A DNA stretch of 64,000 nt from Macrostomum lignano (Eukaryota), in assembly GCA_002269645.1 (NCBI GenBank), contig NIVC01002925.1, forward strand, positions 1 through 64,000, read 5' to 3'. Below, piece after piece: positions 1,499 through 30,441 of this stretch. A program made the translations under genes and the position numbers. Each line of letters starts with the position of its first letter. Within the stretch, counting starts at the first letter, position 1. The notes under the pieces were generated by a model that was not told the DNA's origin, made no database searches, and worked only from the letters and a program-made list of their open reading frames with translations.

Positions 1499-3717
1499 AC
1501 AGCACGGTAACGAAGGTTGAAACTCGAGTGGAGTTCACCTGGCAGGTGTAGCTGCCGGAGTGCTGCCGCAGCGCCCTGTTGATCCGCAGCTCCGGGCCCG
1601 CACTGCAGTTCCCATCTGGTTGGCACAGCTGCATGCCGCTTGTGTTGTTACCAATGATCTCCGAACCATTGAAGTACAGCGTGCAGCTCACTGCAAAACT
1701 GTCGTTCTCGGCTGCTGTTTGCGCATGCGAGGATGCTGAAAATCAACACGTTATGGTTGCTTTTTGTCTATTAATTGTATTTAAATATGGAGACAAGCAA
1801 TGACACTCAGCTCACACAGCACTGTGACGGAAGTTGACTCTGCGGCAGAGCCAAGCTGGCAGGTGTAGAGGCCAGAGTGCTGCGACTGTGCCTTCACAAC
1901 CGACAGCTTCCAGGTTTTCGTGCAGTTTCCGTCTGGTTGGCACAGCTGCAGCTGCCTTGAGTTCGTGCTCAACTCCGTGCCGTTGCATAGAATGCACGAG
2001 CAGCTCACGTTAAAGCTTTCGTTTGCAGCAACAAGTTGGTCTGTCGATGGTACTGCAAATCAAGTCATATAAATTTATACTTTAATGCTATAATGCTATT
2101 TACCGTGGAGTTTCTCGTGTCATTCATGACCCATGAAGGCCAGCCCCCAATGCACAGAGAGTGCACAAGCCTGATGACTAGAAAGTCAGGCCAAAGCCCA
2201 CAATATTATCAGATATTTTCATGCCACTTTTGAGGCTTCTCTGGTCTTCAAGTGCTTTGGGAAAGTCCACAGCCTCACCCAGGCGCACTGTCTGCAGCGT
2301 CAGATCTGAGACGCTCAGATAGCCGTAGTCTCTGGCTGAGAAGCTCAGGCTCACGTTTCTCCTGAGGAGCAGATACCGGACCTGGGATGTTGCACTCAAC
2401 ATTTTGAGATCCGGGTGAGATGAACTAATTAAGCACATAATCTCTGTAGCATCAATGCTCACCTCTGCAAGACAGTCCACCATGTAGAGCCCATTACGTG
2501 TGCTACTCATCGACCTATTTGTAGTGACACCGCAACGCTTCAACTGCTCAGGTACTTATTAAACTGTTTGCTCATATTTTTGAGTTGCAGTGATTGCCAG
2601 AAAACAGTTGCTCCTCTGAGTTCGAAGTCCAGATCTCGATGCCAGCTGAGCTGCGGAACATTTCAGCATCCGAGAAGACTGAAATTATTGGCCAGATCAA
2701 CGAGATTGTAAAAATACCGGAAGAAAGAGGGTTTCAGGAATGCTGCAGTGATTTAGTTTCATAAGCGAACCGATGACTTTAGGGTTAAATTACAGCATCC
2801 AGCTTAGACAGTCAATAAAAAGCAGCTGCTGTTTTTTATGAAATCAACCAACTAGCCAAGAGTCCTGCTTGGACTCAACCGCAGGGACATCAGGCCGTGA
2901 CCATGGACCTCTCGGTCATGGCTGTTTTGCCAGGCATCGTTACCTTCAGGAAAAATCCGTAGCGAGGAATGATGCCCTTTCTGCCTCTCCGGTGTCGAGA
3001 ATGCGGAGCACTTCATCTGTGAATGCTCCGCCTTTACTCAGGACAGGCTTCACCTACCTCAGCCCAAACTCGGACCTCTCCGACGTTTTCAGGCCCGAGA
3101 ATCTCTGCCAGCTCGTCCGCTACCTAAGGCTACCGCGCTGCGGACACTGGCACCACCGGGATCTCCCTGCAGAACACCGCAGCACCAGCTTCCCTGGTCG
3201 CCAGGGGTTCGCAAAATGGGCGGCGACGCCTCGCTGCATCCGGATGCCCGGACTCCCTGAAGCTATGTCAAGTAAGTTAACCAACTAGTCAATCAGTGCT
3301 TCATAAAACTGGTCTGTGGTGTAACTCACCCTCGCTGCCCTTCACTGTCACAGAACCGATGAGCACTGACTCACTCAGCTGCACAGCGAACCAGTGAAAT
3401 CCGCTATCGTTAAAATGCTTTTTGTCATTGCTGTGAATGAACTGAAAACTTTGGCTTGTGTTCAGAACATTGCTCTCATTCAGCTGGTCTCTCTCGTGAA
3501 AGCAAGAATAGAAATAAGAGGACTGCCAGGCGTTGAGTACAGTCTTGTTGCGAATCGGCACCCCACCTGCAACATAGGAACTTGAGAAGTTAGAAATCCA
3601 TTTCGCTTGAAAAAACACCCTGGAGGGTTTAAAAAGCTTTCACTCACAGTCGCAGAGACAGGTAGCGATGCAGAGCAGAGCCCCTAACAGGGATATCAGC
3701 GCTGCAGCTTCCATCAT
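1499..3717 (-). CDS. Receptor R8 (5' part): signal peptide - FTP-like lectin - Ig x2; continues or is truncated beyond the left edge; frameshifted as assembled
   Basis: Exons (minus): SP 3717-3648 ([23 protein letters not shown]); lectin 3566-3330 ([26 protein letters not shown]), 2678-2463 and 2381-2279 (VRYLLLRR...LSVSDLTLQ); Ig 2052-1816 and 1735-1499. All have GT-AG ends and matching phases except 2678-2463 (216 nt), which is 2 nt short of frame (two apparent 1-nt deletions). Confidence 0.8.
2860..3285 (+). mobile_element. 5'-truncated non-LTR retrotransposon 3' end in an R8 intron
   Basis: [12 protein letters not shown] followed, after a frameshift, by [18 protein letters not shown]. 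This matches the TGH + C-x2-C...H-x4-C C-terminus seen in the 15.3-16.1 kb LINE fragment; ends near a TAAG-like tail. Confidence 0.6.
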
Positions 3718-4829
3718 GCAGACACTTGCTGATCACTTCAAAGCAATTCTGTCGTTAGTACAACAAGCGCAGCAAAAAAGAATCCATTTTGATCTTGTGT
3801 CATGGCTTTTGTATTTGGCTGCAGAAACCATTGATGCAGGGCTGCAGTCGCAAGTTCTGTTCCGGCAGGTGGTGACTACAAGTTCCATCTGTGTATAAGA
3901 CTGCAAGTTGAAATAAAATGTTTACAAACTCTCTGGCTGCAGCTTAGCCAAACCAAGGACTTCTAGATAATAGAAGTCCTTGGCCAAACTGAACTTGGTT
4001 TGAATAAGCGACGAAAATCATATTTGGGTTTCTTGGCTCCGATGGGGACTGAGTTTGCTTGGCCGTCTCTGACTCTGCAGGTGTCGCGACTTTCCTAGTC
4101 ATTTCTTAGTTCACCTCTCTCTCTGAGGCTTTTCATATTACCAATTCCAGAATCAGAATCGGTTCGGATCTTCCAAGAAAAACAGCAGTATAACTATTTA
4201 ACTCTGTTGAATGTTTGACTGCCTTAACAACCTCACTTAGCACAATTTTTCACTTTCTTCTTGGCGATTGTCATTCAATAATAAAAACTTTATAGCACGT
4301 ATCTCCCTCTAGTTATGGAGACAAAAAGTTATACTTCACAAATTGGTTCTGGTTCTGGAACCAGAACAAGCAATATGAAAAGGCCCTCTGTCTAGCTCAA
4401 TCTTGTTATTCTTATCTCTGTCTCCCTCGCCGCCTTCTGATTGGCTCTCCAGTCTCCCTCCGCCCCCCTCTCCTTATTATTCTGGGCTCAACCCCCCAAA
4501 GTTAATGTCTGGTATAAATACCATTAAATATCGGTTTGGGCCCTGCGCCCACTTACTCCTCCAATTTAACTCCAGTATAGGAATTGCTGAAATAGAGTTT
4601 TCTTTTGCATTTATGCAATGCATCGTTGCTTAATGATGAAACTTTTATTAAACTATAACTCAATAATTTCAAACAGACAGGAACAGCTGAAATTTCGCCT
4701 GACAGAGCTCTATTTGGAATTCGGAAGTGCAAAAATCCAGATGCGAATTTAATGGTACACTGTCTCAGTTTACTTGTCTTTGTACATGTACTGCAGATTA
4801 TTACTACTTTAGGTTGACACGCTGGCGCT

Positions 4830-5550
4830 TTTTCTATTTGTGCTGGTACCGTACGAGTACTGGGTGCTGAGAACCAGACTGCCTGAGTCGGACGATGGCA
4901 ATGGCTTCATGCTTAGACGTCGCATGAGTCGGAGGCATCCGGAGAAGCGTCTTTGTGTGCTCGGCTACGTGGATGACCTAGCGTTGCAGTGTCTTCAACA
5001 GTCGAAGGCGCCCAACGGCTGCTGGATGGCTTGACGAAAGCGGCAGCGATGGTCGGCCTCTCACGCTGCACGCGCAGAAGTCTTCACTATGCCGCTGGAC
5101 CTGCCGAGATGCTGTCAGGAATGAGACCCCGCTTCCACACATTTTGTATACCTCGGCGAACTCGTGCCTGATATCGCCGTGACTTGAGGAGACGCCTTAC
5201 GCTCGGTGCACTCGCAGTGCTGCGATCTGAGGCTCTGGATGACGCGACCAGGGCTCAGCTGTTTCGGGCAGTCGTCGAGACTGTTCTCTGCTCTACGCCG
5301 AGCACTCTGTGATGCTGCGCTCTCAAGCTGGCTCAAGCTGGCTGGCCACGTCATCCGGTCGAAGAGTCGCTGCCGTGAGCCGTTACACGACCTGCTAGGT
5401 CAACGTCAACGCTACGTCAACGGCGTAGGGTCCGCGGAGACGAAGCCAATGGCAAACGACGCGCTACCCGAGCTGCTTCTGAAGGATGCGAGAACCCCCG
5501 TTCCGACTCTGACTGGAGGAGATGAATTTTTGAGAAGTGCGGCCCAATGA
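4830..5550 (+). mobile_element. Degraded LINE reverse-transcriptase fragment
   Basis: RRRMSRRHPEKRLCVLGYVDDLAL (YxDD core) and, in another frame, LFRAVVETVL; multiple frameshifts. Confidence 0.6.
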
Positions 5551-6063
5551 CGTGTGTTCTGACACCTCCCCCCTCTGTGACCACTTGTGGCCGGCAAGAG
5601 GTGTATATTGTTGTTTTTTAATATAATTTAGTATGAAATTAGGTATGGTAATATAAATTTGTTTTAAAAAGTCTTGGACCAATATTAAACTGTTGAAAAC
5701 ATCAAATGACCTGCAGTGCTTAGCTTTTAGACTTTAGGCTAGATATGATGTAGCTTAAGGCACAGCTATGTTTAGCATTGGCTAATACTATATATCATAT
5801 GGTTTATTGGAAAAAAAGTAAATTGTGAATAAATTCTGAAAAAAGCTATCAAAAGAATTTTGCTTCCGCATCAAACAGATCAGGTGATATTGGTAATTGA
5901 ACTGTCGGCTTCAAAACTGCTTTACAGTATTCGGGAGTGTTGCGTCATTATTTCTTATGTGTATTAAGCGCAGTAAAATAAAATATATTGGCCTATGTGT
6001 ACGGTAAATCTAGCTCTGGGATAAAACACATCCTCATGAACTGAGAACAATAAATCGAATTAG

Positions 6064-17288: not shown

Positions 17289-20170
17289 TCACAGAATATA
17301 GATTCCAGTCGCATTCTCCAGCTTGTACTCCGAATTCTCGTACTCAGATGCAGACTGCGGTGCCGCCGGTCCCCCTGCGGCCGGTCTCCCTGCCGTTGGA
17401 CGCCGCCGGGCACAGCCTGCAGAGCCGCAGGCGTCCGGCCTTGTCTGAAATTGGACGAGCGACTTCACAAGTGACGTCTTGATGAAATCGGACGAGCGAC
17501 TTCACAAGTGACGTCTTGATGAAATCGGACGAGCGACTTCACAAGTGACGTCTTGATGAAATCGGACGAGCGACTTCACAAGTGACGTCTTGATGAAATC
17601 GGACGAGCGACTTCACAAGTGACGTCTTGATGAAATCGGACGAGCGACTTCACAAGTGACGTCTTGATGAAATCGGACGAGCGACTTCACAAGTGACGTC
17701 TTGATGAAATCGGACGAGCGACTTCACAAGTGACGTCTTGATGAAATCGGACGAGCGACTTCACAAGTGACGTCTTGATGAAATCGGACGAGCGACTTCA
17801 CAAGTGACGTCTTGATGAAATCGGACGAGCGACTTCACAAGTGACGTCTTGATGAAATCGGACGAGCGACTTCACAAGTGACGTCTTGATGAAATCGGAC
17901 GAGCGACTTCACAAGTGACATCTTGATGAAATCGGACGAGCAACTTCACAAGTGACGTCTTGATGAAATCGGACGAGCAACTTCATAATTGACGTCTTGA
18001 TGAAATCGATGAGCAACAGAAATCCAAATTGATGGTTCTAACAACTCGCAGCATCTTCGAGAAGTTTCGTCAACTGCCTGCAACCTCCTCTGGTGCACAA
18101 TGTCAGCCACATTGTGAGTGTGTACTTACCCGGTTGAGCATTCGGAGTCTGATGGCTGCCGCGGAGGCTGCGGCCGCGATGAAGCCAAAACAAAATCCCA
18201 TAGCGATGTGGAGCACCAGTACTGTAGACACCAGACTTCCGCTGCAACAGCTCGTGAATGTTGAGTCTGTGTGGACAGCCTGAATACGGATGCCCTTCGG
18301 AAAACTCTGCACGGCAGAGCAAGTGATGATGGCGCTGCTGATATCCAGCCTCTTTACGTCATCAGTAGGAAATACCCATCTGCTGACGTAACCGTCCTTG
18401 CTCTGCAGTGCAGCGACATTTGCAGTTAATAGTGAGTCAGTCAGTCAGTCAGTCAGTCAGTCAGTCAGTCAGTCAGTCAGTCAGTCAGTCAGTCAGTCAG
18501 TCAGTCAGTCAGTCAGTCAGTCAGTCAGTCAGTCAGTCAGTCAGTCAGTCAGTCAGTCAGTCAGTCAGTCAGTCAGTCAGTACTGTCTCAATTTTGAGCA
18601 CGCACTACTGGTAGCAGTGTGAGATTCCACAGGTTGACTCCAACTCTGGCGTTGCATCTGTGCTCAGACACGGGCTGCGATGAGGAAGACGTGAACTGCA
18701 CGGTCACATGGGTCAAACTCTGGCAGCTCTGAGAGTTCAGCACTGAGACCGCCACTCTCGATGGAGGGTCTGCGGATTCGGATTCATTCGGATTTTCCGT
18801 TGTTTGAAAAGCGGAGGAAAATAATTTCGAGAAAAAGTATTGAAGAGCGCCTCACAATACACGGTGAGGTTGGTGGTCTTCCTGACCGTGCCTATCTTGC
18901 AGGTGTAACTTCCTGAGTCCTCTGACTGGATTCTGGGGATGTGTACCGCGTTGGAAGCTGTGCAGCTGCCACGAGGAGAGCAGAGTTTTAATCTTTTTGT
19001 CTGCGCGTCGACTTTCGTACCTTTGCAGTGCAGTGAGCAGCTGACTGAGACATTGTCGTTTCTAACCGTCTCTTCAGGGGAAGACACTTCTGCAGACGAG
19101 GGGAAGACACTTCGCAAAGTTAGTAATTAATATAATGCTGACGGCAATCTCTGTGCCTTGGGGGTTGCGCCTTATGGGTGTGAATCGTGCCAATTTTCGT
19201 GAACATTTTCGTGATCAGAATTTTTGCTATTTGCTATCAACTATGTCCAGGTGAGCATGTTCTGTCCAATCCGCAGCACTTACTCAGCTCCATTGTCTGC
19301 AGGCTGAGGTCTGCGAAGCTCATGAAGTCGTGGGTCATGGAAGGATCAGCAGTTCTGACGTCACGCCTCAACAGTAAGTACCGGACCTGGATTTGAAAAA
19401 TAACTTGTTCAAAAAAGAAGCATTAGAACACTGCAGTTTATTGATGCCAATGGTTGAGAACACTGCAGTTTATTGATGCCAATGGTTGAGACACTTACAT
19501 CCTGTGTGCAGTTCACCGTCAGTGTCTCACCAGCCCTGATGCTTCTTTGCTGGCCGTCCGTGACGCCGCACAGCCTCCAGTACCACAACGACTCTCTGAA
19601 CTGGCTGCTCATGCTCCTGGAGCTGCAGTGATCTCCCGAGAGCATCACTCTGCTGCTTCCTGCTGTCCAGACTTCGATCCCCCTGGTTCTCGAGTAAGTG
19701 AACGATTTCCCGTCTAGAATGAGTTGAGAAAATCAAGTCGAACGAGCTCTGTGCGCGCATGAGCTGCATCACAGTGCCACTCACATTCTCTGCCCTTCAG
19801 GGTCACTGAGCTGATGAGCAGTGGCTCACTCAGCTGCACTGCAAACCAGTGAAACCCTCCGTCTGCTGCCGAGCCGTCCCCGCTGTGAAAAAACCTGTAG
19901 CTGCTGCTGGGCTTGCTGAGCACAGCGGCTTCCTCCGATGCAGTTCTGTTGTGGAAGCAAGTTGGACCGTTGCCGAAGGACGACTGCCACGAGTTGAGAA
20001 CACGAGTGCGGCGGATTTCTATTTTGCCTGCGAGTAACAGTGATGAAGCTGTCGATTTGAGAATTTATTGCCTTGGTTGAAACCCCCGAACTCAACTCAA
20101 ACTCACAGTCTTGGATAGCAGCGGTGTGCGCAACAGCCAGAAGCAATAGAAATTTGGAAACAGCTCGCAT
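17289..20170 (-). CDS. Receptor R6: SP - FTP - Ig x1 - membrane-proximal domain - TM - class II (YEN) tail
   Basis: Exons: SP 20170-20107 (MRAVSKFLLLLAVAHTAAIQD); lectin 20027-19785, 19713-19499, 19386-19284; Ig 19089-18856; 18769-18606; TM exon 18402-18130 (VLVLHIAMGFCFGFIAAAASAAAIRLRMLNR); last exon 17444-17289 ending SEYENSEYKLENATGIYIL*. Phases are consistent; a middle tail exon (perhaps starting 18089) is unresolved. Confidence 0.85.
17454..18010. repeat. 37-bp head-to-tail minisatellite, about 15 units, in the R6 tail intron
   Basis: Unit GACGAGCGACTTCACAAGTGACGTCTTGATGAAATCG; no spacers. Confidence 0.95.
18433..18580. repeat. (TCAG)n microsatellite, intronic in R6
   Basis: Read directly. 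Confidence 0.97.
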
Positions 20171-20668
20171 CCGTATTTCTGATTGTGGCTTTTCACTTTG
20201 CAAAGAAAATTTAGCGATGTATCATTAGCAAATACGAATAAGCGCATTGACACTTTTATGACTCCTTGTTGTGTTTATATATGACCGGCCCGGCCTCTGC
20301 AAACTTTGTTGAACTTTCGTTGCACGCTTTTAAATTTTGAAATGTAATTTAGCTCGAAGGTTTGTTTATGAAATGCAGAATTTTAGCCATTTACCAGAAA
20401 TTAGACGTTAATATACAAATACGATAAATAATGGGCCTTTCATAAGATTGAAGGCAATGCGATCCTTATCTTGAAGATTCTGGCCGACCTTGGCTTACGT
20501 AGACCTACTGTATGTACATCAGGTTCTGCATGCAGTTTGAGGGTGGCAGCTACAACCACAGAATATTCTGTCAGAATATTCAGAATAAAATGAACATTTT
20601 AGAATATTTTAGCCACATTAAATATAGCTTAGTGGCTTGCAATTACTGCAATAGAAACGCGAATATGA

Positions 20669-21074
20669 TATTAAACCCCAAAAGACTAACGCAGAGTAAA
20701 AGCAAGTGGCACAAAAGACCGGCAGACGCGGCCCAGAAAGGGAAAACGAACCCCTTAAGCGACGAAATATATTGATTTTGTAATTTAAAAGAGAAAAAAT
20801 ATTTTGCCAAAATTACGCCGACTCAGCGGCCGCGACGCGTGACTAAATAGCACAGAGCGGAGGGGAGGCTGCCCTAAGCCCTGCACGCACGCAGAGCACC
20901 AGCACCCCACCAACCCACCAAAGCGAGGCCGGACCGGCGCGGGGGGGTTTAAAACCAGTTAGAGTCAGATACCTGCCTCAAACTGACGTATTAAACCCCA
21001 AAAGACTAACGCAGAGTAAAAGCAAGTGGCACAAAAGACCGGCAGACGCGGCCCAGAAAGGGAAAACGAACCCC
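20669..21074 (-). repeat. 3' terminal B1-A2-B2 block of the DIRS-type element
   Basis: Direct-repeat matches read from the sequence; 40-bp spacer between A2 and B2. Confidence 0.9.
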
Positions 21075-21121
21075 AACACCAACAGAAAGAGGGAGGAAGG
21101 AGACAAGCGTGTAAAATCAAA

Positions 21122-23530
21122 TCAACGAGCCGCAGAAAAAATTAAACCAAGCCAAAAAAGCCAGGTCCAAGCAATAGCTCTAAGACTCGCACCTGAGCTC
21201 GGGATCTGCTTCAGCCGTCGCAACTCGCTCCGCTCGAGAACTGCGCCAGAGACCGGGCTCAGCGCGAGCGACGCCTGCTCAAGCAACCGGGCCGCCGTTG
21301 ACTCATTGAGGCAGGCCCTGCGCAGATCTTCCGGCTGCGCCTTGGCCCGGCCGAAGTAGCGCAGCAGAAACAGCAGCATGTGGCGGGGATGCGTCAGGCA
21401 GCGCGACAGCGGGTCGCTCAGCAGCTGCCAGGACCCCGGCATATGGTGAGCTCGAAACTGAAAGTCGTGCCTCAGCGCTGCCAGAGTGGCCGTTTTGAGC
21501 AGGGTCATGACGATCGGGTTGCTGGAGGCACCGCGGTTGATGGTGCCGACCGCCGCGCTGCTGTCGACGTAGCAGGCCACCTTGCCGCCGGCCAGCTGCT
21601 CCTGGAACAGAATGATGGCGAGCAGCGGCAGTACCGTCTCCTTGGCGTTGATGTGCTCGCTCAGGAAGATGCCACCGGCGTCACTGCAGAAGTCGACGAG
21701 GCGGAACTCGCGCTGGCCATCAGAGGTGCTCAGGATCATGCCACCGGCACTGACGCAGGCGTCCGTCTCGACCGCTGCCAGCACTCGTGCACGCCGCCAC
21801 AGCTTGTCGGTCGGGAACACTGGGATTGCATGCTGCCAGAACTGCAACTGGGCCAGTACCTCGCCGCGCACCGGTACTCGATGATGCTGCTCAGGAATAG
21901 CGATGGTTATCTCCAGGAGCGCGCGAAGCAGGGCCTTTGCAGGTTTGGCCACTTTGCAGAACCAGTTAAGTTTGCCGACTAGGTGCTGAAGGCGACGTTT
22001 TTGCAGGCTCTTCGAGTTGGCGCAGTCCTGGAGAAGTTCTCGAAGGCCGTCCATCTTCTCGGCGGGCAGTGACAGCAGGCCAGTCAATGTGTCGATCTGC
22101 ACACCCAGGAAAGTGATCGAAGTGGCTGGGCTCTGCGTCTTGGCCCAGTTGATCTCAAAGCCGAGGCGCTGCAGGGTGACCAGCAGAAAATTGTGCAGCT
22201 GCAGGCAGACCTCGTAGTCCCGGGCAGCTATGCAGAAATCGTCGAGGTATGCGATGACGACGAATTTGGACAGATGCGAGAATTGCCTGTACATAAAGCG
22301 CTTGACAGCTTGCGTTAGGCGGTGGAAAATGTTGACTGATGCCGCCGCACCGAATGGGAGTCGCGTGTCAACCAGATAAGTGGGCTGACCGTCCAGCTCG
22401 AACGTCCACCGGAGCCCCGTCGCCTTATAGCAGTCTGGGTGCACCTGAACACTTCGGTAGGCGTGGCGTAGGTCGACCTTGCTGATGAACCAGCCTGGTG
22501 CCAGCTGCCTGGTGAGATCCTCGACATTGGCAAACTTCATCTTCTGGCGGGGCTTGTACAGATCGTTGAGGCTGTTGCCCTGTGGCGCGGACGCGTCGTG
22601 AATCAGGCGGATGGCGCCGTCTGCCTTCGGGACGGCGCCCAGTGGGCTGATGATGGTCGGCCTGGCGATGCCCAAGTCAGTTGCGCTGATGTACCGGCCA
22701 GCCACGACCTCCTCTCTGATCCGCAGCTCAACGGCATTCCGATTTGCCTCGCAGCAGGCGGATGCATGATTTTCGAGCTGGGATTCGCTGGTCGGAGCCG
22801 CGTCGGTGATGCGAAAGCCATCGCGAATTCCCGCGATCAGAAACTCCGCGTCCGAGTCTCCGAGCAGGACTGGTGTCCAAGCAGCAGTTAACAGCGGCCA
22901 ACGTTTTCGGAGTGCAGCCACCGGGCCAGCAACAGGGCCGGCAGCAGCGCCGGCAGCGGGGCCGGCGGCAGGGCCGGCGGCAGGGCCGGCGGCTGGGCCG
23001 GCAGCAGGGCCGGCAGCAGGGCCGGCAGCAGGGCCGGCAGCAGGACCGGCAGCAGGGCTGGCAGCAGGACCGGCAGCAGGGCCGGCAGCAGGGCCGGCAG
23101 CAGGGCCGGCAGCAGGACCGGCAGCAGGGCCGGCAGCAGGACCGGCGGCAGGGCCGGCAGCAGGGCCGGCAGCAGGACCGGCAGCAGGAACGGCAGCAGG
23201 ACCGGCGGCAGGGCCGGCAGCAGGACCGGCAGCAGGGCCGGCAGCAGGACCGGCAGCAGGGCCGGCAGCAGGACCGGCGGCAGGGCGAGTGGCAGGGCGA
23301 GTGGCATGGCGAGCGGCAGTGCGAGCGGCAGGGCGAGCGGCAGGGCGAGCGGCAGGGCGAGTGGCAGGTCGAGCGGCAGGGCGAGCGGCAAGGCGAGTGG
23401 CAGGGCGAGCGGCAGGGCCAGTGGCAGTGCGAGCAGCTGTCTCGCATGGAATTAAAATTTTGGACTGTCTATCAGACGCCGTCCGCTTAGGGCTAAAACT
23501 GGTGCCGCCGCGACCCGCCTCTTTGCTCAG
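21122..23530 (-). CDS. Pol frame: Ala/Gly/Pro repeat linker + reverse transcriptase + RNase H (DIRS type)
   Basis: [47 protein letters not shown] (RT); VETDAC, HINAKE, YVDSS (RNase H). The frame stays open upstream of the GTG at 22921 to 23638, with no ATG, GTG or TTG in that stretch. Confidence 0.88.
22921..23430. repeat. 12-bp GC-rich repeat (GCAGGGCCGGCA type) between gag and RT
   Basis: Read directly; encodes AAGP-like units in the pol frame. Confidence 0.95.
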
Positions 23531-24573
23531 TTTTTTGATTCGGCAGCCACCGAGCTGTGTTGCAGCTTTGAGTGGCTCCCTTCGCAGATGCGGCAGATGT
23601 GGGCGAAATTGCAGGTGTGTCTGTGACAGCCTTTGTTGCTATTGAACAAGCCGCAGATGACCTGTCCAGAGGATGACAGCTGGCCCCTGCTACGGTGACC
23701 CTGGACTCCTTGACCGACCGCGACTGGGCCAGCAGCTCGCAGGTTTTTGGGCGCCGTCATATGCTTGATGATGAGGTTCAGATCGGGGCTGTCCCAGTCG
23801 CGCTGTCGCGAGTGCTGCTGCAGCCTCATGTCCTGGTCGTACTGGAGCACCACCTTCCAGTCGTAGCCAGCGTCGATCAGCTCGCCGATGTGGATGTTAA
23901 AGTTGAGGTAGGCGTTCAGACTCTTGCAGTCGGGCTGTCCATCCGTACCGGGCGCCACCAGCTGGCCGGTCTCCAGCAGTCGCTGCATGATCCGCGCGTT
24001 GGCAGCCACCCACTGGCCGAAGTTGACTCCGGACAGGCTCGGCGTTGCGCCTTTCAGAGTCAGGCGACCACGTTCCTGTGTCAGCCATCCTCCCGACTGC
24101 TGCCTCTCGTCCAGAAATTCCGGGATGAGCAGCGCTGATGGGGGCCGCTGGGCTCCGGCCGAATCAAACCTTGGTTGTCGGCTCTGGTCCCCGAACAGGC
24201 TGGCGTAGATGTCCGGCCCTCCTCTGGCCAGCGGGGGCGATGCGGCGCCACTGCGGATCGACTGCACTTCATCCCGCAACTGGGCCTCAGCCTTCTGCAA
24301 TTTAAGCAGCTCGATCCTCTTCTGAGTCTGCCGAATCTGCGCTTCTGTGGCCTCCTCCGCTGGCGCAGCCCGGCGCACGTCATCCTCGTCCTGGTCGTCG
24401 TCACCGTCGTCATCGCTGGGAGCTCGTTCGGCCTGGCTTGCAGCGAGCAGGCGGCCTATCAGCTCTTCTTTATTGCCACTTGTAGGTAAGGCCTTCTCGC
24501 GTAAGGCATCTTTGAGGGCCTGCACGGTCATGCTGCCCAACGTAGAGTCCATTGTGAGTGCAGTGCTTGGCAA
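23527..24573 (-). CDS. Gag-like protein with N-terminal SAP motif and C-terminal Cys/His fingers
   Basis: MTVQALKDALREKALPTSGNKEELIGRLL (SAP consensus); ICGLFNSNKGCHRHTCNFAHICRICEGSH (CCCH plus CxxC-H). The first ATG is at 24552; 24573 is TTG. Confidence 0.85.
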   Translation of the reverse strand: MPSTALTMDSTLGSMTVQALKDALREKALPTSGNKEELIGRLLAASQAERAPSDDDGDDDQDEDDVRRAAPAEEATEAQIRQTQKRIELLKLQKAEAQLRDEVQSIRSGAASPPLARGGPDIYASLFGDQSRQPRFDSAGAQRPPSALLIPEFLDERQQSGGWLTQERGRLTLKGATPSLSGVNFGQWVAANARIMQRLLETGQLVAPGTDGQPDCKSLNAYLNFNIHIGELIDAGYDWKVVLQYDQDMRLQQHSRQRDWDSPDLNLIIKHMTAPKNLRAAGPVAVGQGVQGHRSRGQLSSSGQVICGLFNSNKGCHRHTCNFAHICRICEGSHSKLQHSSVAAESKN

Positions 24574-24585
24574 ATCAGGCAGGCT

Positions 24586-24785
24586 AAAAATATTTTGCCA
24601 AAATTACGCTGACTCAGCGGCCGCGACGCGTGACTAAATAGCACAGAGCGGAGGGGAGGCTGCCCTAAGCCCTGCACGCACGCAGAGCACCAGCACCCCA
24701 CCAACCCACCAAAGCGAGGCCGGACCGGCGCGGGGGGGTTTAAAACCAGTTAGAGTCAGATACCTGCCTCAAACTGACGTATTAA
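24586..24785 (-). repeat. 5' terminal A1 repeat of the DIRS-type element
   Basis: Matches 20795-20994 almost perfectly. Confidence 0.9.
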
Positions 24786-25611: not shown

Positions 25612-28600
25612 TCAGTCCCCATCAGCGACCATCTCTCGATAGCCATCTGCAGCAGTTGGAGCACCTTTAGCCGGGACCACTGTGTAGTAACTGCACTCTG
25701 ATGAAGCTTCTCTCAAGTTACTGACTGTCTGGAATGTTCAGAAAAAAAGTAAAAGTACTTTTGATACTGCAACTAGAACATGTAAGAGCTAAAGACCCAC
25801 CTCGGCTTGACCAGAATTTGGCTCAGGTGTTCTCAACGGAGTTGAAACCGCTGCAGAAACCGGTTCAGAGTGGCGGCAAATGCGCTAAAATAGTTTTGGT
25901 TTTTGTTTTTGGTCAACTGGAGTTCATGAAAGGCGCTAAAATATTTCAGAGGACTCACAGCGATTGCAGCAAACATGAGCAGCGTGGCGAGGATGAGCAG
26001 AGCACAGATGCAGATAATCCACAGACTGGCTGAAGCAGCTCGAGCACTTGACTTCAGACTGCAGCTCCACTTCGCAGTCCTATGGCTGAACCCGGAGAAT
26101 TTGATGTGGTCTGGCAAGTTCTGCGCCGCGGTGCAGCTCACTGAGCCGCTGCTCCAGCCCAGCTTCTCAGCCTCATCACCAGCGAGTGCCCACCTGCTCA
26201 CAGAGCCTTTGCTGCTTGAGATCTGCAATCAGCCCGTCAGGCAGTCTCAAACTAAAGTTCAATACCCTTCAGAAATTCCTAATCCATCGAAACTCACGAA
26301 TGACAGGAGCGTTATATTTCTCATTCTTTGTCCATCTTCATCAACCCTGCAGCTGTGCTCCGAAACCGGCTGAGATGCAGATGAGTTCAACTGAACGATC
26401 ACATCTGATTGACTTGAGCAGCTGTGTGAGTTGAAAACCGAAATAGCAACAACTCTTGGCGGGTCTGTTGGCAAAATCAAGTCAGGAGTCACGGCAACAT
26501 TCTGAGTGCTTAACTAAGCAGCATGACAGAGGCCAGGACTTACAAAGCACTGCAACAGAGGCTGACGCAAACATCAAGCCCAAGCTGCAGGTGTAGATTC
26601 CAGCATTCTCGGGTGCAGCACTGGAAATCTGCAGTATGCGACTACCTGTGCTGCAGCTTCCGTTGGGCTGGCAGAGCAGTAGGCTACTCCAATCTTCACC
26701 GATGTCAGGGTGCAGCTGGCAGGTGACCTTGAAGCTGGAGTTTGCAGCCACGACTTGATCTTCAGACGATGCTGCAATTGAAAAATTCAAATCCATTTGT
26801 AATGCCTGCATAAAAGTGAAAACAGAGAGAGGCCAGTTTCTTACACAGTACAGAAACAGTCGCTGTGACTTCAGCCCCGCGGAGACGGCACCTGTAGGAG
26901 CCTGAACTCTGAGCGGCTGCGTTGAAAACTTGCAGTGCCGTCTTGTTGAAACAGCTGCCGTTTGGGAGGCACAGCTGCGGCCTGCCAAACAAATTGTACT
27001 CATCGCTGTGCAAGATGCAGCTCACATTGAAGCTGGAGTCCTCAGCGACTACTTGATCGGTTGTCGCAGCTGCAGGTACAGGTGGGAGTGCGTGTGTTCA
27101 ATAAGCCTCATATTAAGCTGCACAGGTGTCTCAGCATCAAATCTTGACTCACAGAGCACTGCCACTTTTGTGAACGCAACAACCGACTGTCCAATTTTGC
27201 ACCTGTATGTCCCTGAGCGGGCGGGAGTGACCGCTGCAATCTCAAGGCTTGAATTCGCTGTGCAATCAGCGTTGGGGTGGCACAGCCGCAGCCGCTTGAG
27301 CTCAACTGAGTCTGGGCACTGAGCTGCATCACCGCAGTGTAGTGAGCAGCTCAGGTTGAGACTGGAGTTCTCAGAAATAATTTGATGAGGAGAGGATGCT
27401 GAAACGGTAGAGAAGTCTCAGATTTAGTCAAATAAAATCTTGAACGGAATTTATTTAAAAATTCAACGGCAGGTGACAACCCTCACTCAGAACTGCAACT
27501 TCGGTGGACTTTGTCGCGGTTTCAAATTTGCATGAATATTTTCCAGAGTGCCGAGGCTCCGCATTCTCCATCTCAATTCGGGACTGAGCGATGCAGCTGC
27601 CGTTCGGAAGACACAGCTGCACACCAGACGAGTCTGTGCTCACATTCGCATTGCCACTGTGGAGTGAGCAACTCACTTCGAAGCTGGAGTTCTCAGCCAC
27701 CACTTGACTCAGAGGTGAGGCTTCATTTATTTGAAAGGCAACAACAGAATCGACTCAAACTCAGCATACTTATAGACTGCAGGACCAGGTAAGGAATGGA
27801 AACTTACACAATACCGTCACAACAGTAGCGGCCTCAACAGCATTCAGTTTGCACCTGTAGATTCCGGAATGATAAGTTCTGGCAGCACCAATTAGCAGCT
27901 CACTTTCCAAAGTGCAGCCGTTGTTTGGTGGGCAAATCTGGAGTGTTTTGAGGAATTCCCTGCAGTCTGATGCGTCACCACAGTGCAGCAAACAGCTCAC
28001 TGAGAAGTTTGAGCCCTCCGCTACAACTTGAGTCCTAGAAGGAGCTGAAATGTTGAGACAGATCGGTTATTTAGCCTCTCCAATGGAGAGAGAGCTTCAG
28101 AGACGCGCAAATCTCATTGCTCGGACTCACAAAGCACAGAAACTGCTGTTGAAATCTTGTGATAACCAAATCGGCACGTAAACTTTTCTGCGTGATGAGG
28201 CTGAGCACGAAGAATATGAGAATTGACACCTGATCTGCAGCTGCCATTTGCAGAGCACAGCTTCAAATCACTCGCTTGAGTCGGACTGAAGACTTCTGAG
28301 CTGTTGCAGTTCTGCGTGCAGCTCAATGTGAAGCTGGCGTTCTCAGCCACCACAAGAGGGCTGTGGGCTCCTGCAATTTCAGAGCTAAATTATGCAATAT
28401 TTAAAATTCTTATCGACCTTCTTCAGAAGTAAACTACTTGAGAACTCACTGAGAGGAACAACCTGAAGTGAGAGATCTGCAAAGTTCATGAAGCCATCAC
28501 CTGCCGCAAGGTTGCTTCTCCTCAGCAGCAGGTGCCGGACCTGCAGGAAAGCAGTGCAAAATGGTTCTTTGCTTTTAATCGCGTGGTCTAACTGCATTTG

Positions 28601-30441
28601 GATTGTATATCCTCAAAATACTTGCCTCAGCCTCACAGTCCACCTTTAAAGATTCTCCCGCGGTGATGCTGCCCTTCTTGTCAGTTTGGCCGCACTTTGT
28701 CCAATAGGCCTCCGAGTCCTCGTACTGGCGACTCATGCCTTTTGAGCGGCAATGATCACCGGAAAATATCGCTTGGACTCGGTTGGAAGTGAAAATTTCG
28801 ATACCCTTGGCCCTCAGAAAGTCGGTGCTGCTTCCGACTGAAGTTTGGGAAGTTTGTCTCACCTGAAACCCAGCGCTAATGAAAGAAGGTTGAGCTCAGC
28901 TGATCGGCACTCACCCTCTCTCACTTTCACAGTCACAGATCTGATGAGCACTGTCTCATTCAGCTGCACTGCAAACCAGTGAAACCCGCCGTCTGCTTCG
29001 CTCTCGCCGCCGCTGTGGAAGAACCGGTAGCTGCTCTCCCTGCTTTCAATGTCTCGTGCCTCCCGCGAAGCGCTCCTGTTGTGAAAGCAGGTCCGTCCAT
29101 AGGCTGACGACTGCCACGAGCTGAACACTCGGCTCCTCCGAATTGGGAAATCGCCTAAATTCCACAGAATGAAATCTTTAATGCGAAGTTTGAAATGGCA
29201 AAAACTGACTTAACTATTAGAACTTCAAGCTAAGATGCTCACACAGCACAACAACTGTAGTCGAGTACTTCCAGGAGCCGAATTTGCAGGTGTAGCTGCC
29301 GGATTGCATCGGGTGCGCCCTGCGAATCTGCAGCCGATTGTCTGCTGTGCAGCTGCCGTTTGGAAGGCAGAGCTGCAGTTCGCTTGAGTCTGTGCTCACC
29401 GCGGCTGCTCTGCAGGACAGCGAGCAGCTGATCGTGAAACTGGAGCCCTCCGCCACCAGCTCTGGTGCAGACATGCCTGTGAAGTCAACCGGTTTATTAG
29501 CACAGTTTTAGTAACTAACGCTTTATTCAGATGGACTCTCAGTGTGCTCACCAAGCTGCACAGTTTGTAGCTGGAGATCGGCCGCGCTCATGAAGTCAAG
29601 AGGCGGCGAGGCGTCCTCTGCCGTCACGTTCTTTCGCAGCAGTAGGTGCCGAACCTGAAAACTCGATTTTTGTGCTTCAATAGTTTATGGCTATGAAGTG
29701 AGACATTTTCTAAAGCATAGCAACAACCCACCTCGGCCGTACACTCCACCGTGAGCAGTTCGCCGGAAACAGCGGCGTCTGCGCTCTCAGTGAGACTCGC
29801 TGGGACTCGCTGAACTGCCTGCTCATGCTCTCTGAGCTGCAGTGCTCGCCTGAAAATATCTCCCCGAAGCTGCTGGACGCCCAGATTTCAATTCCGCTGC
29901 TTCTACGATAGACGCTAGATTCGCTGTCTGCAATTTTTCGAGCGGTTTTCTAGATTAAATCAATGGTTACCAAGCAGGATGGCTCTTCACATTACCAGTT
30001 GGCTCTTCACATGGCTATTTCAGGAGTTTCTTCTAGTTTTCAATCCTCAAATCTGCTAAGCAAGTCCTCTCTCACCGTCTCTGCCCTTCACAGTCACTGA
30101 GCTGATCAGCACTGACTCGTTGAGCTGCACGGCGAACCAGTGAAACCCGCCATCTGCTTGGCTCTTGTCAGCGCTATGCAAAAACCTGTAGCTTTGCATT
30201 CTGTCACCGATCACCGAGGCCTCAGCACTGCGAGTTCTGTTGAAGAAACAGGTCGGCCCGTCGCCAAAGGACGACTGCCAGGTGCTCAGCACGTGATGCC
30301 TTCGAATTGGAAGCTCACCTGAAATTTTGAGGCACAATGGCTGAGCACTCCAGCAGTCGCGGCAGCAGCAATAATGTACTTACAGTCTGCCAGAGCACCC
30401 GGTCCCAGCGAGACAATCAGGACTAGAATCGCAGGCACCAT
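25612..30441 (-). CDS. Receptor R5: SP - FTP (disrupted) - Ig - FTP - Ig x6 - membrane-proximal domain - TM - class I tail
   Basis: Exons: SP 30441-30384 (MVPAILVLIVSLGPGALAD); lectin 30318-30076, 29927-29732 (196 nt, lacks WxxCG, out of frame), 29654-29552; Ig 29476-29243; lectin 29154-28915, 28837-28626 (GC donor), 28540-28450; Ig 28370-28131, 28044-27808, 27720-27487, 27398-27153, 27069-26845, 26771-26544; 26464-26298; TM exon 26222-25959; tail 25884-25801 and 25728-25612 (SECSYYTVV...DGYREMVADGD*). Confidence 0.85.

Follow-up and report, generated by a model that had tools for sequence, protein, structure and literature searches.

Programmed -1 ribosomal frameshifting on the heptamer A_AAA_AAC is, with high probability, the best explanation of the gag-pol junction of a Ngaro-type retrotransposon on the minus strand of the window, the whole stretch of 64,000 nucleotides of Macrostomum lignano DNA analyzed here (contig NIVC01002925.1). 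Comparison with sister families and distant relatives also makes it probable, though with clearly less confidence, that Ngaro elements follow a full retrovirus-like programme, in which Gag would come from unspliced RNA, Gag-Pol from recoding and a fusion of the N-terminal part of Gag to the recombinase from spliced RNA. The recoding switch would flip repeatedly among -1 frameshifting (NCA_AAA_AAC), readthrough (UGA-C, UAG-G) and +1 frameshifting (CCN_CGU_UUU_CGU), with the -1 site acting in most lineages with no 3' RNA structure.

Split direct repeats in the order A1-[ORFs]-B1-A2-B2 are given in the accessible parts of PMC8547959 and PMC3783388 as the defining layout of Ngaro, and this layout is found in the window (Table 1), in full copies and in the sister families L045, L053, L050, L065 and L083. 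Copy ends and loose ends place the outer end of A1 at 24781-24783. The SAP domain of the window gag matches Pfam PF02037 (E 2.5e-9), and homologous ORFs lie upstream of the reverse transcriptase (RT) in sister families; RNase H was assigned by homology to relatives with PF17917, there being no direct Pfam match in the window. No Pfam match to a protease, an integrase or a methyltransferase was found in the window pol, nor one to a methyltransferase in the pol of L045, and the lack of a methyltransferase is what sets Ngaro apart from DIRS1 and PAT in the available text of PMC3266345. The window element is like Ngaro in its split direct repeats, gag-like ORF1, RT-RNase H, missing methyltransferase and solo AB remnants, and unlike it in having no tyrosine recombinase (YR) after RT-RNase H; judged by these features, it is a Ngaro-type retrotransposon (order DIRS), and a YR-less derivative rather than a complete Ngaro element.

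Table 1. Features of the Ngaro-type element and its gag-pol junction in the window.
Feature	Position	Strand	Remarks
Split direct repeat A1 (5' end)	24586..24785	-	200-nt identical pair with A2; true end near 24781
Gag-like ORF1, 341 aa	23527..24552	-	ATG 24552; N-terminal SAP, C-terminal Cys/His zinc-finger-like motif, ends SKN-stop
Slippery heptamer A_AAA_AAC	23530..23536	-	forms the last two gag codons, after an NCA codon; phase checked
Gag stop UGA	23527..23529	-	directly 3' of heptamer
GC-rich run	23501..23521	-	8-nt spacer after heptamer; stable structure not found
Two UUUUA motifs	23453..23498	-	3' of gag stop
12-nt tandem repeat	22923..23430	-	between shift site and RT; Ala-Ala-Gly-Pro-like in pol frame
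Pol reading frame, RT then RNase H	21122..23638	-	PF00078 at aa 371-515, E 5e-17
Site homologous to YR splice acceptor of sister families	21254..21277	-	CAG/G at 21274, weak pyrimidine tract; no YR after it
Split direct repeat B1	20989..21074	-	repeat pair with B2
Split direct repeat A2	20795..20994	-	repeat pair with A1
Split direct repeat B2 (3' end)	20669..20754	-	repeat pair with B1; copy ends

No YR was found in the window or in 20 fetched copies of its family, and the window tail gave no significant profile match to a YR remnant, so the family presumably borrows its recombinase. YR is present in 54 of the 60 loci sampled elsewhere in this genome (PF00589 on L045); in L031, the closest sister of the window family, it was not seen either. 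A search for an autonomous partner with the same A/B repeats returned 14 loci with an A-B pair, all of them solo AB with no YR in the ~10 kb fetched. These loci (L111-L124) are solo-LTR-like, carry no internal sequence and include three that lie 5.3-5.9 kb apart on C1451. A UniRef entry labelled Macrostomum lignano matches the element at 99%. The window family is young: a query with the junction returned 42 matches, about 17 of them at 99-100%. Of the 16 heptamer-bearing copies, 10 have an uninterrupted -1 frame that reaches from the heptamer across RNase H, and the length of the 12-nt tandem repeat differs among copies (heptamer-to-anchor distance 394-898 nt) with one phase kept in 14 of the 16. 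Relative to most copies, the window copy has a one-base indel near 21254. The family (20669-24785 in the window, and L091-L110) has neither a YR nor a gag splice donor, yet it comprises many 99%-identical copies with gag and pol intact. In L091-L110 the 5' ends start at the motif of the B1-A2 junction after A/T-rich flanks, a target-site duplication is not evident, and L096 consists of two elements in tandem. Repeated immunoglobulin-like exons ~320 nt apart occupy the minus strand at 18100-20200 and 26500-30300 of the window, and the element probably lies inside an intron or between duplicated genes.

On the minus strand gag ends GAA TCA AAA AAC TGA. The first-pass annotation had described a correctly phased heptamer at this point, a pol frame in -1 and no ATG, GTG or TTG upstream of 22921; the minus-strand sequence and an ORF check agree, and all of its coordinates hold. 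Pol (838 aa) is open in -1 relative to gag, with GTG 22921, TTG 22675 and ATG 22540 as its first start-like codons, and near-cognate codons that had gone unmentioned, CTG (23629, 23614 and 23596) and ACG (23482), lie further upstream in the same frame. The first ATG is amino acid 367, inside RT and downstream of the conserved LIHDAS motif at amino acid 345, so that initiation at AUG would yield a truncated RT. The codon usage of 11 gag genes predicts the heptamer at 3e-5 per position, and AAAAAAC is found in phase at none of the 3157 positions within the bodies of these genes.

A_AAA_AAC is the gag-pro slippery site of MMTV and deltaretroviruses. In the Ngaro element the majority of ribosomes would terminate at the UGA and set Gag free, and a minority would move one base back on the heptamer, the tRNA-Lys on AAA and the tRNA-Asn on AAC re-pairing on AAA AAA as at retroviral X_XXY_YYZ sites, to render a Gag-Pol fusion that includes reverse transcriptase and RNase H. 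We infer this slip, and the Gag:Gag-Pol ratio that it would set, from what is observed: a heptamer in phase, pol in the -1 frame, no usable AUG, and conservation across families.

Conservation was followed in the M. lignano genome, where 150 of 1778 candidates from an RT search were scored and 60 loci of ~10 kb each were chosen to cover distinct scores. Cut at 80% RT identity, these give 13 families, or 14 with that of the window, which are 44-62% identical to each other in RT. Gag closes with A_AAA_AAC, 0-1 codons before the stop, in 49 of the 60 loci (12 of the 13 sister families); counted by family, the heptamer is present in 13 of 14, directly before the stop in 12 and one codon earlier in one. 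The families are far too diverged for the heptamer to have been conserved passively, and its presence in phase supports the frameshift reading. An intact -1 overlap is found in 11 of the 13 heptamer families, the L031 and L061 families having been sampled as broken copies only. In the fourteenth family (L071, L083, L085, L086, L088), which is nested among the -1 families, gag and pol are in frame across UGA-C, making it a candidate for readthrough. The other six of the 60 loci comprise two with no gag call, two with no heptamer within 1.5 kb, one with a shorter A run and one with A_AAA_GAC (L055). Within the window family the heptamer is kept in 23 of the 26 loci that span the junction (two of these being one copy), a count that is uninformative because the copies are near-identical; the three copies with an altered heptamer are 85-87% identical to the window, and two of them (L027 and L030) have no ORF of 200 aa on the strand of the element. 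In 12 of the 14 families a UUUUA motif follows the gag stop at a distance of 5-75 nt, as against 14 of 57 distant elements and a background of 4.7% per 90-nt window. Read in the pol frame, this motif often gives F-x-P.

Scanning metagenome contigs gave 80 more distant loci, 32-43% identical over RT-RNase H, of which 65 had a callable gag. Four with a broken or fused junction (L147, L157, L196, L200) were left out, three of which still have the heptamer or a longer A run, and the other 61 fall into 57 clusters. YR follows pol in 43 of the 46 distant loci long enough to show it. The pol frame is -1 in 26 clusters, in frame with gag in 22 and +1 in 9. Of the 26 -1 clusters, 25 have an in-phase X_XXY_YYZ within the final 60 nt of gag, vs. 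1 of the 31 others (Fisher p 7e-14, with relatedness ignored and the counts phylogenetically non-independent). AAAAAAC turns up in phase 22 times, each time in the -1 class, and out of phase not once. The first-pass annotation had proposed a check of heptamer conservation across copies; the in-phase heptamer is present in 22 of the 26 distant -1 elements as well as in the 13 families above. All 22 sites have exactly six A, follow a C and lie 0-36 nt before the stop, and the variants G_GGA_AAC, G_GGA_AAA and A_AAA_AAU obey the tandem-slip rule. The exceptions are L195, the one -1 cluster with no heptamer, and L184 (which clusters with L162), where the heptamer is non-canonical. An AUG lies between the site and the conserved start of pol in only 2 of 25 distant -1 elements.

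The remaining classes carry signals of their own. In the in-frame class UGA-C or UAG-G is found at 17 of the 22 stops vs. 4 of the 35 others, and UAA at none vs. 13 of 35. In the +1 class an in-phase UUU_CG is present in 9 of 9 elements vs. 0 of 48 others; the clade (L134, L137, L142, L148, L153, L173, L182, L183, L190) may have a single origin, and the eight members displayed read CCN CGU UUU CGU near the end of gag. In eight of the nine the overlap also holds an upstream AUG in the pol frame, which renders the +1 class less secure. Relatives with no heptamer thus mostly carry another known type of predicted recoding signal. On a quick maximum likelihood tree of 71 rows, restricted to own-genome and metagenome elements, the distribution of -1 and other modes needs 12 changes, at least 7 of them forced by strongly supported branches.

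The canonical -1 signal has two parts, a slippery heptamer and a 3' structure, according to the available text of PMC3542737. In the window an in-phase heptamer with a -1 ORF is present and an RNA structure 5-9 nt downstream was not found, which counts against frameshifting here. The GC-rich stretch that the first-pass annotation had pointed to does follow the heptamer after an 8-nt spacer, but folds no better than shuffled sequences: z was +0.05 to +1.72 in four of five folding windows and -0.72 in the longest, and +0.96 and +0.17 in a second run. A simple H-type pseudoknot 3' of the heptamer was not found in a crude search that had no known positive control and that returned one in 41 of 60 shuffled sequences. 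Folding against shuffles and this crude search leave the stretch unsupported as a structured stimulator in the window family. The 25 distant -1 elements have a mean folding z of -0.03, with 2 of 25 below -2. Hairpins 3' of the heptamer with z below -2.5 were found in 4 of 13 own-genome families (L043, L050, L067, L070; z -2.6 to -4.2), and the hairpin of the L045 family showed no compensatory pair in 4 sequences. A stop close behind the shift site can itself matter, as reported for one plant virus in the accessible part of PMC5009743, and with no stable 3' structure in the window family the shift may rest on the slipperiness of the heptamer and the adjacent stop.

A test for splice acceptors recovered a site 60-90 nt before the YR core; it has phase 1 in 26 of 31 elements, with a G after it in 21. 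A phase-1 GTRAG donor stands at a homologous position in gag in all 10 of the families with YR that were examined, and the YR-less family of the window lacks it. For L045 (G000:C1066) contigs from two of four runs join 3616 to 6018 with GT..AG ends and in frame (the short side being only 24 nt and the runs possibly RNA). In L045 and its sisters the source of YR appears to be a spliced RNA that joins the N-terminal part of gag (SAP domain, coiled coil) to YR. A second frameshift at the pol-YR overlap was considered and rejected: only one of 23 distant elements and none of 9 own-genome families has a heptamer there, the frames are mixed and the overlap looks spliced.

Pol might likewise come from a separate RNA, either by cis-splicing that joins a gag donor to an acceptor close to the start of pol or by spliced-leader trans-splicing; the flatworm spliced leader ends in AUG. 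We consider this very unlikely. The splicing of sister families, with the GT..AG gag-YR joint in two of four runs on L045, and the UUUUA motif after the gag stop in 12 of 14 families speak for it. However, the best acceptor-like site within 200 nt of the gag stop has no common phase (3, 5 and 6 of the 14 families) and weak tracts, distant elements have acceptor-like sites downstream of the gag stop at background frequency (15/57 vs. 42/228 control windows) under the very test that finds the YR acceptor, the window family has no conserved gag donor, and splicing leaves the phase-locked heptamer unexplained. A spliced pol mRNA, which the first-pass annotation had named as evidence against frameshifting, found no support, as no splice signal was detected at the pol start in these sequence tests. 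The window junction is spanned by contigs of four possibly RNA-derived runs with no splice joint, which is evidence neither way because contigs drop rare forms. As the splice tests find the YR sites and nothing comparable at the start of pol, YR looks spliced and pol looks recoded.

A slightly smaller chance still is given to reinitiation or internal initiation of pol at a near-cognate codon, with A_AAA_AAC merely encoding a conserved Lys-Asn end of Gag. The CTG and ACG codons and GTG 22921 do lie in the pol frame before RT, and the missing stimulatory structure is in keeping with this explanation. Yet AAA is the minority Lys codon in gag genes (0.0094 vs. 0.0307 for AAG) and is used with a preceding A in all 13 families, where codon usage, given a Lys-Asn pair, predicts A_AAA_AAC with p=0.021 per family; moreover, A_AAA_AAC tracks the -1 frame and is absent from the 31 distant elements in which pol is not in -1, so that the motif goes with the frame rather than with the protein. 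Transcriptional slippage on the A6 run, which would add one A in some transcripts and so fuse the frames, is the least probable of these alternatives: the site is a homopolymer and its A run is longer in a few copies (L047, L052, L082, L147), but slippage needs no fixed phase and all 22 distant sites keep the X_XXY_YYZ phase, with exactly six A in each, and the G_GGA_AAC and G_GGA_AAA variants have no long run. The conserved in-phase heptamer, and the lack of an AUG or a conserved acceptor to open pol otherwise, make -1 frameshifting, as the first-pass annotation had proposed, a highly probable reading of the junction.

Mechanisms of this kind are known. In the accessible text of the literature covered we found neither a slippery, readthrough or +1 site described for the gag-pol junction of Ngaro, nor the swapping of three modes or the lack of a conserved stimulator; this literature includes PMC3783388, PMC8547959, PMC13003380, PMC6681497, PMC9210276, PMC3266345, PMC5009743, PMC8557442, PMC7192593, PMC9341512, PMC3542737, PMC4157794 and bioRxiv 10.1101/2022.06.16.496473; the available part of PMC5009743 does not mention DIRS or Ngaro. 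The claim to novelty is limited in that the gag-pol overlap may already be mentioned by Goodwin and Poulter (2004), Poulter and Butler (2015) and Gao et al. (2003). Expression of the AUG-less RT and recombinase frames of DIRS-order elements has so far been a matter of conjecture, and a fixed Gag:Gag-Pol switch would imply that Ngaro controls stoichiometry in the manner of retroelements that form particles. Across dozens of natural cassettes in this group, three recoding modes replace each other; among them are -1 sites that lack an evident stimulator and a natural series of +1 sites with UUU_CGU. Annotation should accordingly take pol from the heptamer onward and YR from the splice acceptor, not from a second frameshift.

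The first-pass annotation had regarded frameshifting as unrecognized in DIRS-type elements. The idea is in print, as Poulter and Butler (2015), quoted in the available text of PMC13003380, propose it for Ngaro; their proposal concerns the RT/RH-YR overlap, where our data contradict frameshifting. Compared with -1 frameshifting in retroviruses and LTR elements (MMTV, HTLV), the Ngaro junction is alike in having X_XXY_YYZ at the end of gag and pol in -1; in its accessible part PMC5009743 gives pol in -1 for 28 of 51 animal LTR elements and lists A_AAA_AAC among the most shift-prone heptamers. It is unlike them in that Ngaro belongs to another retroelement order, has no protease or DDE integrase and lacks a conserved pseudoknot or stem-loop, a hairpin being found in some families but not in most. 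The in-frame relatives share UGA-C and UAG-G, the contexts of type II and type III readthrough respectively in the available text of PMC3542737. The +1 class is similar to the influenza PA-X type of +1 site, UCC_UUU_CGU (PMC5009743, accessible part), but reads CCN CGU UUU CGU. Unlike the readthrough and PA-X systems, Ngaro has all three modes within one transposon group.
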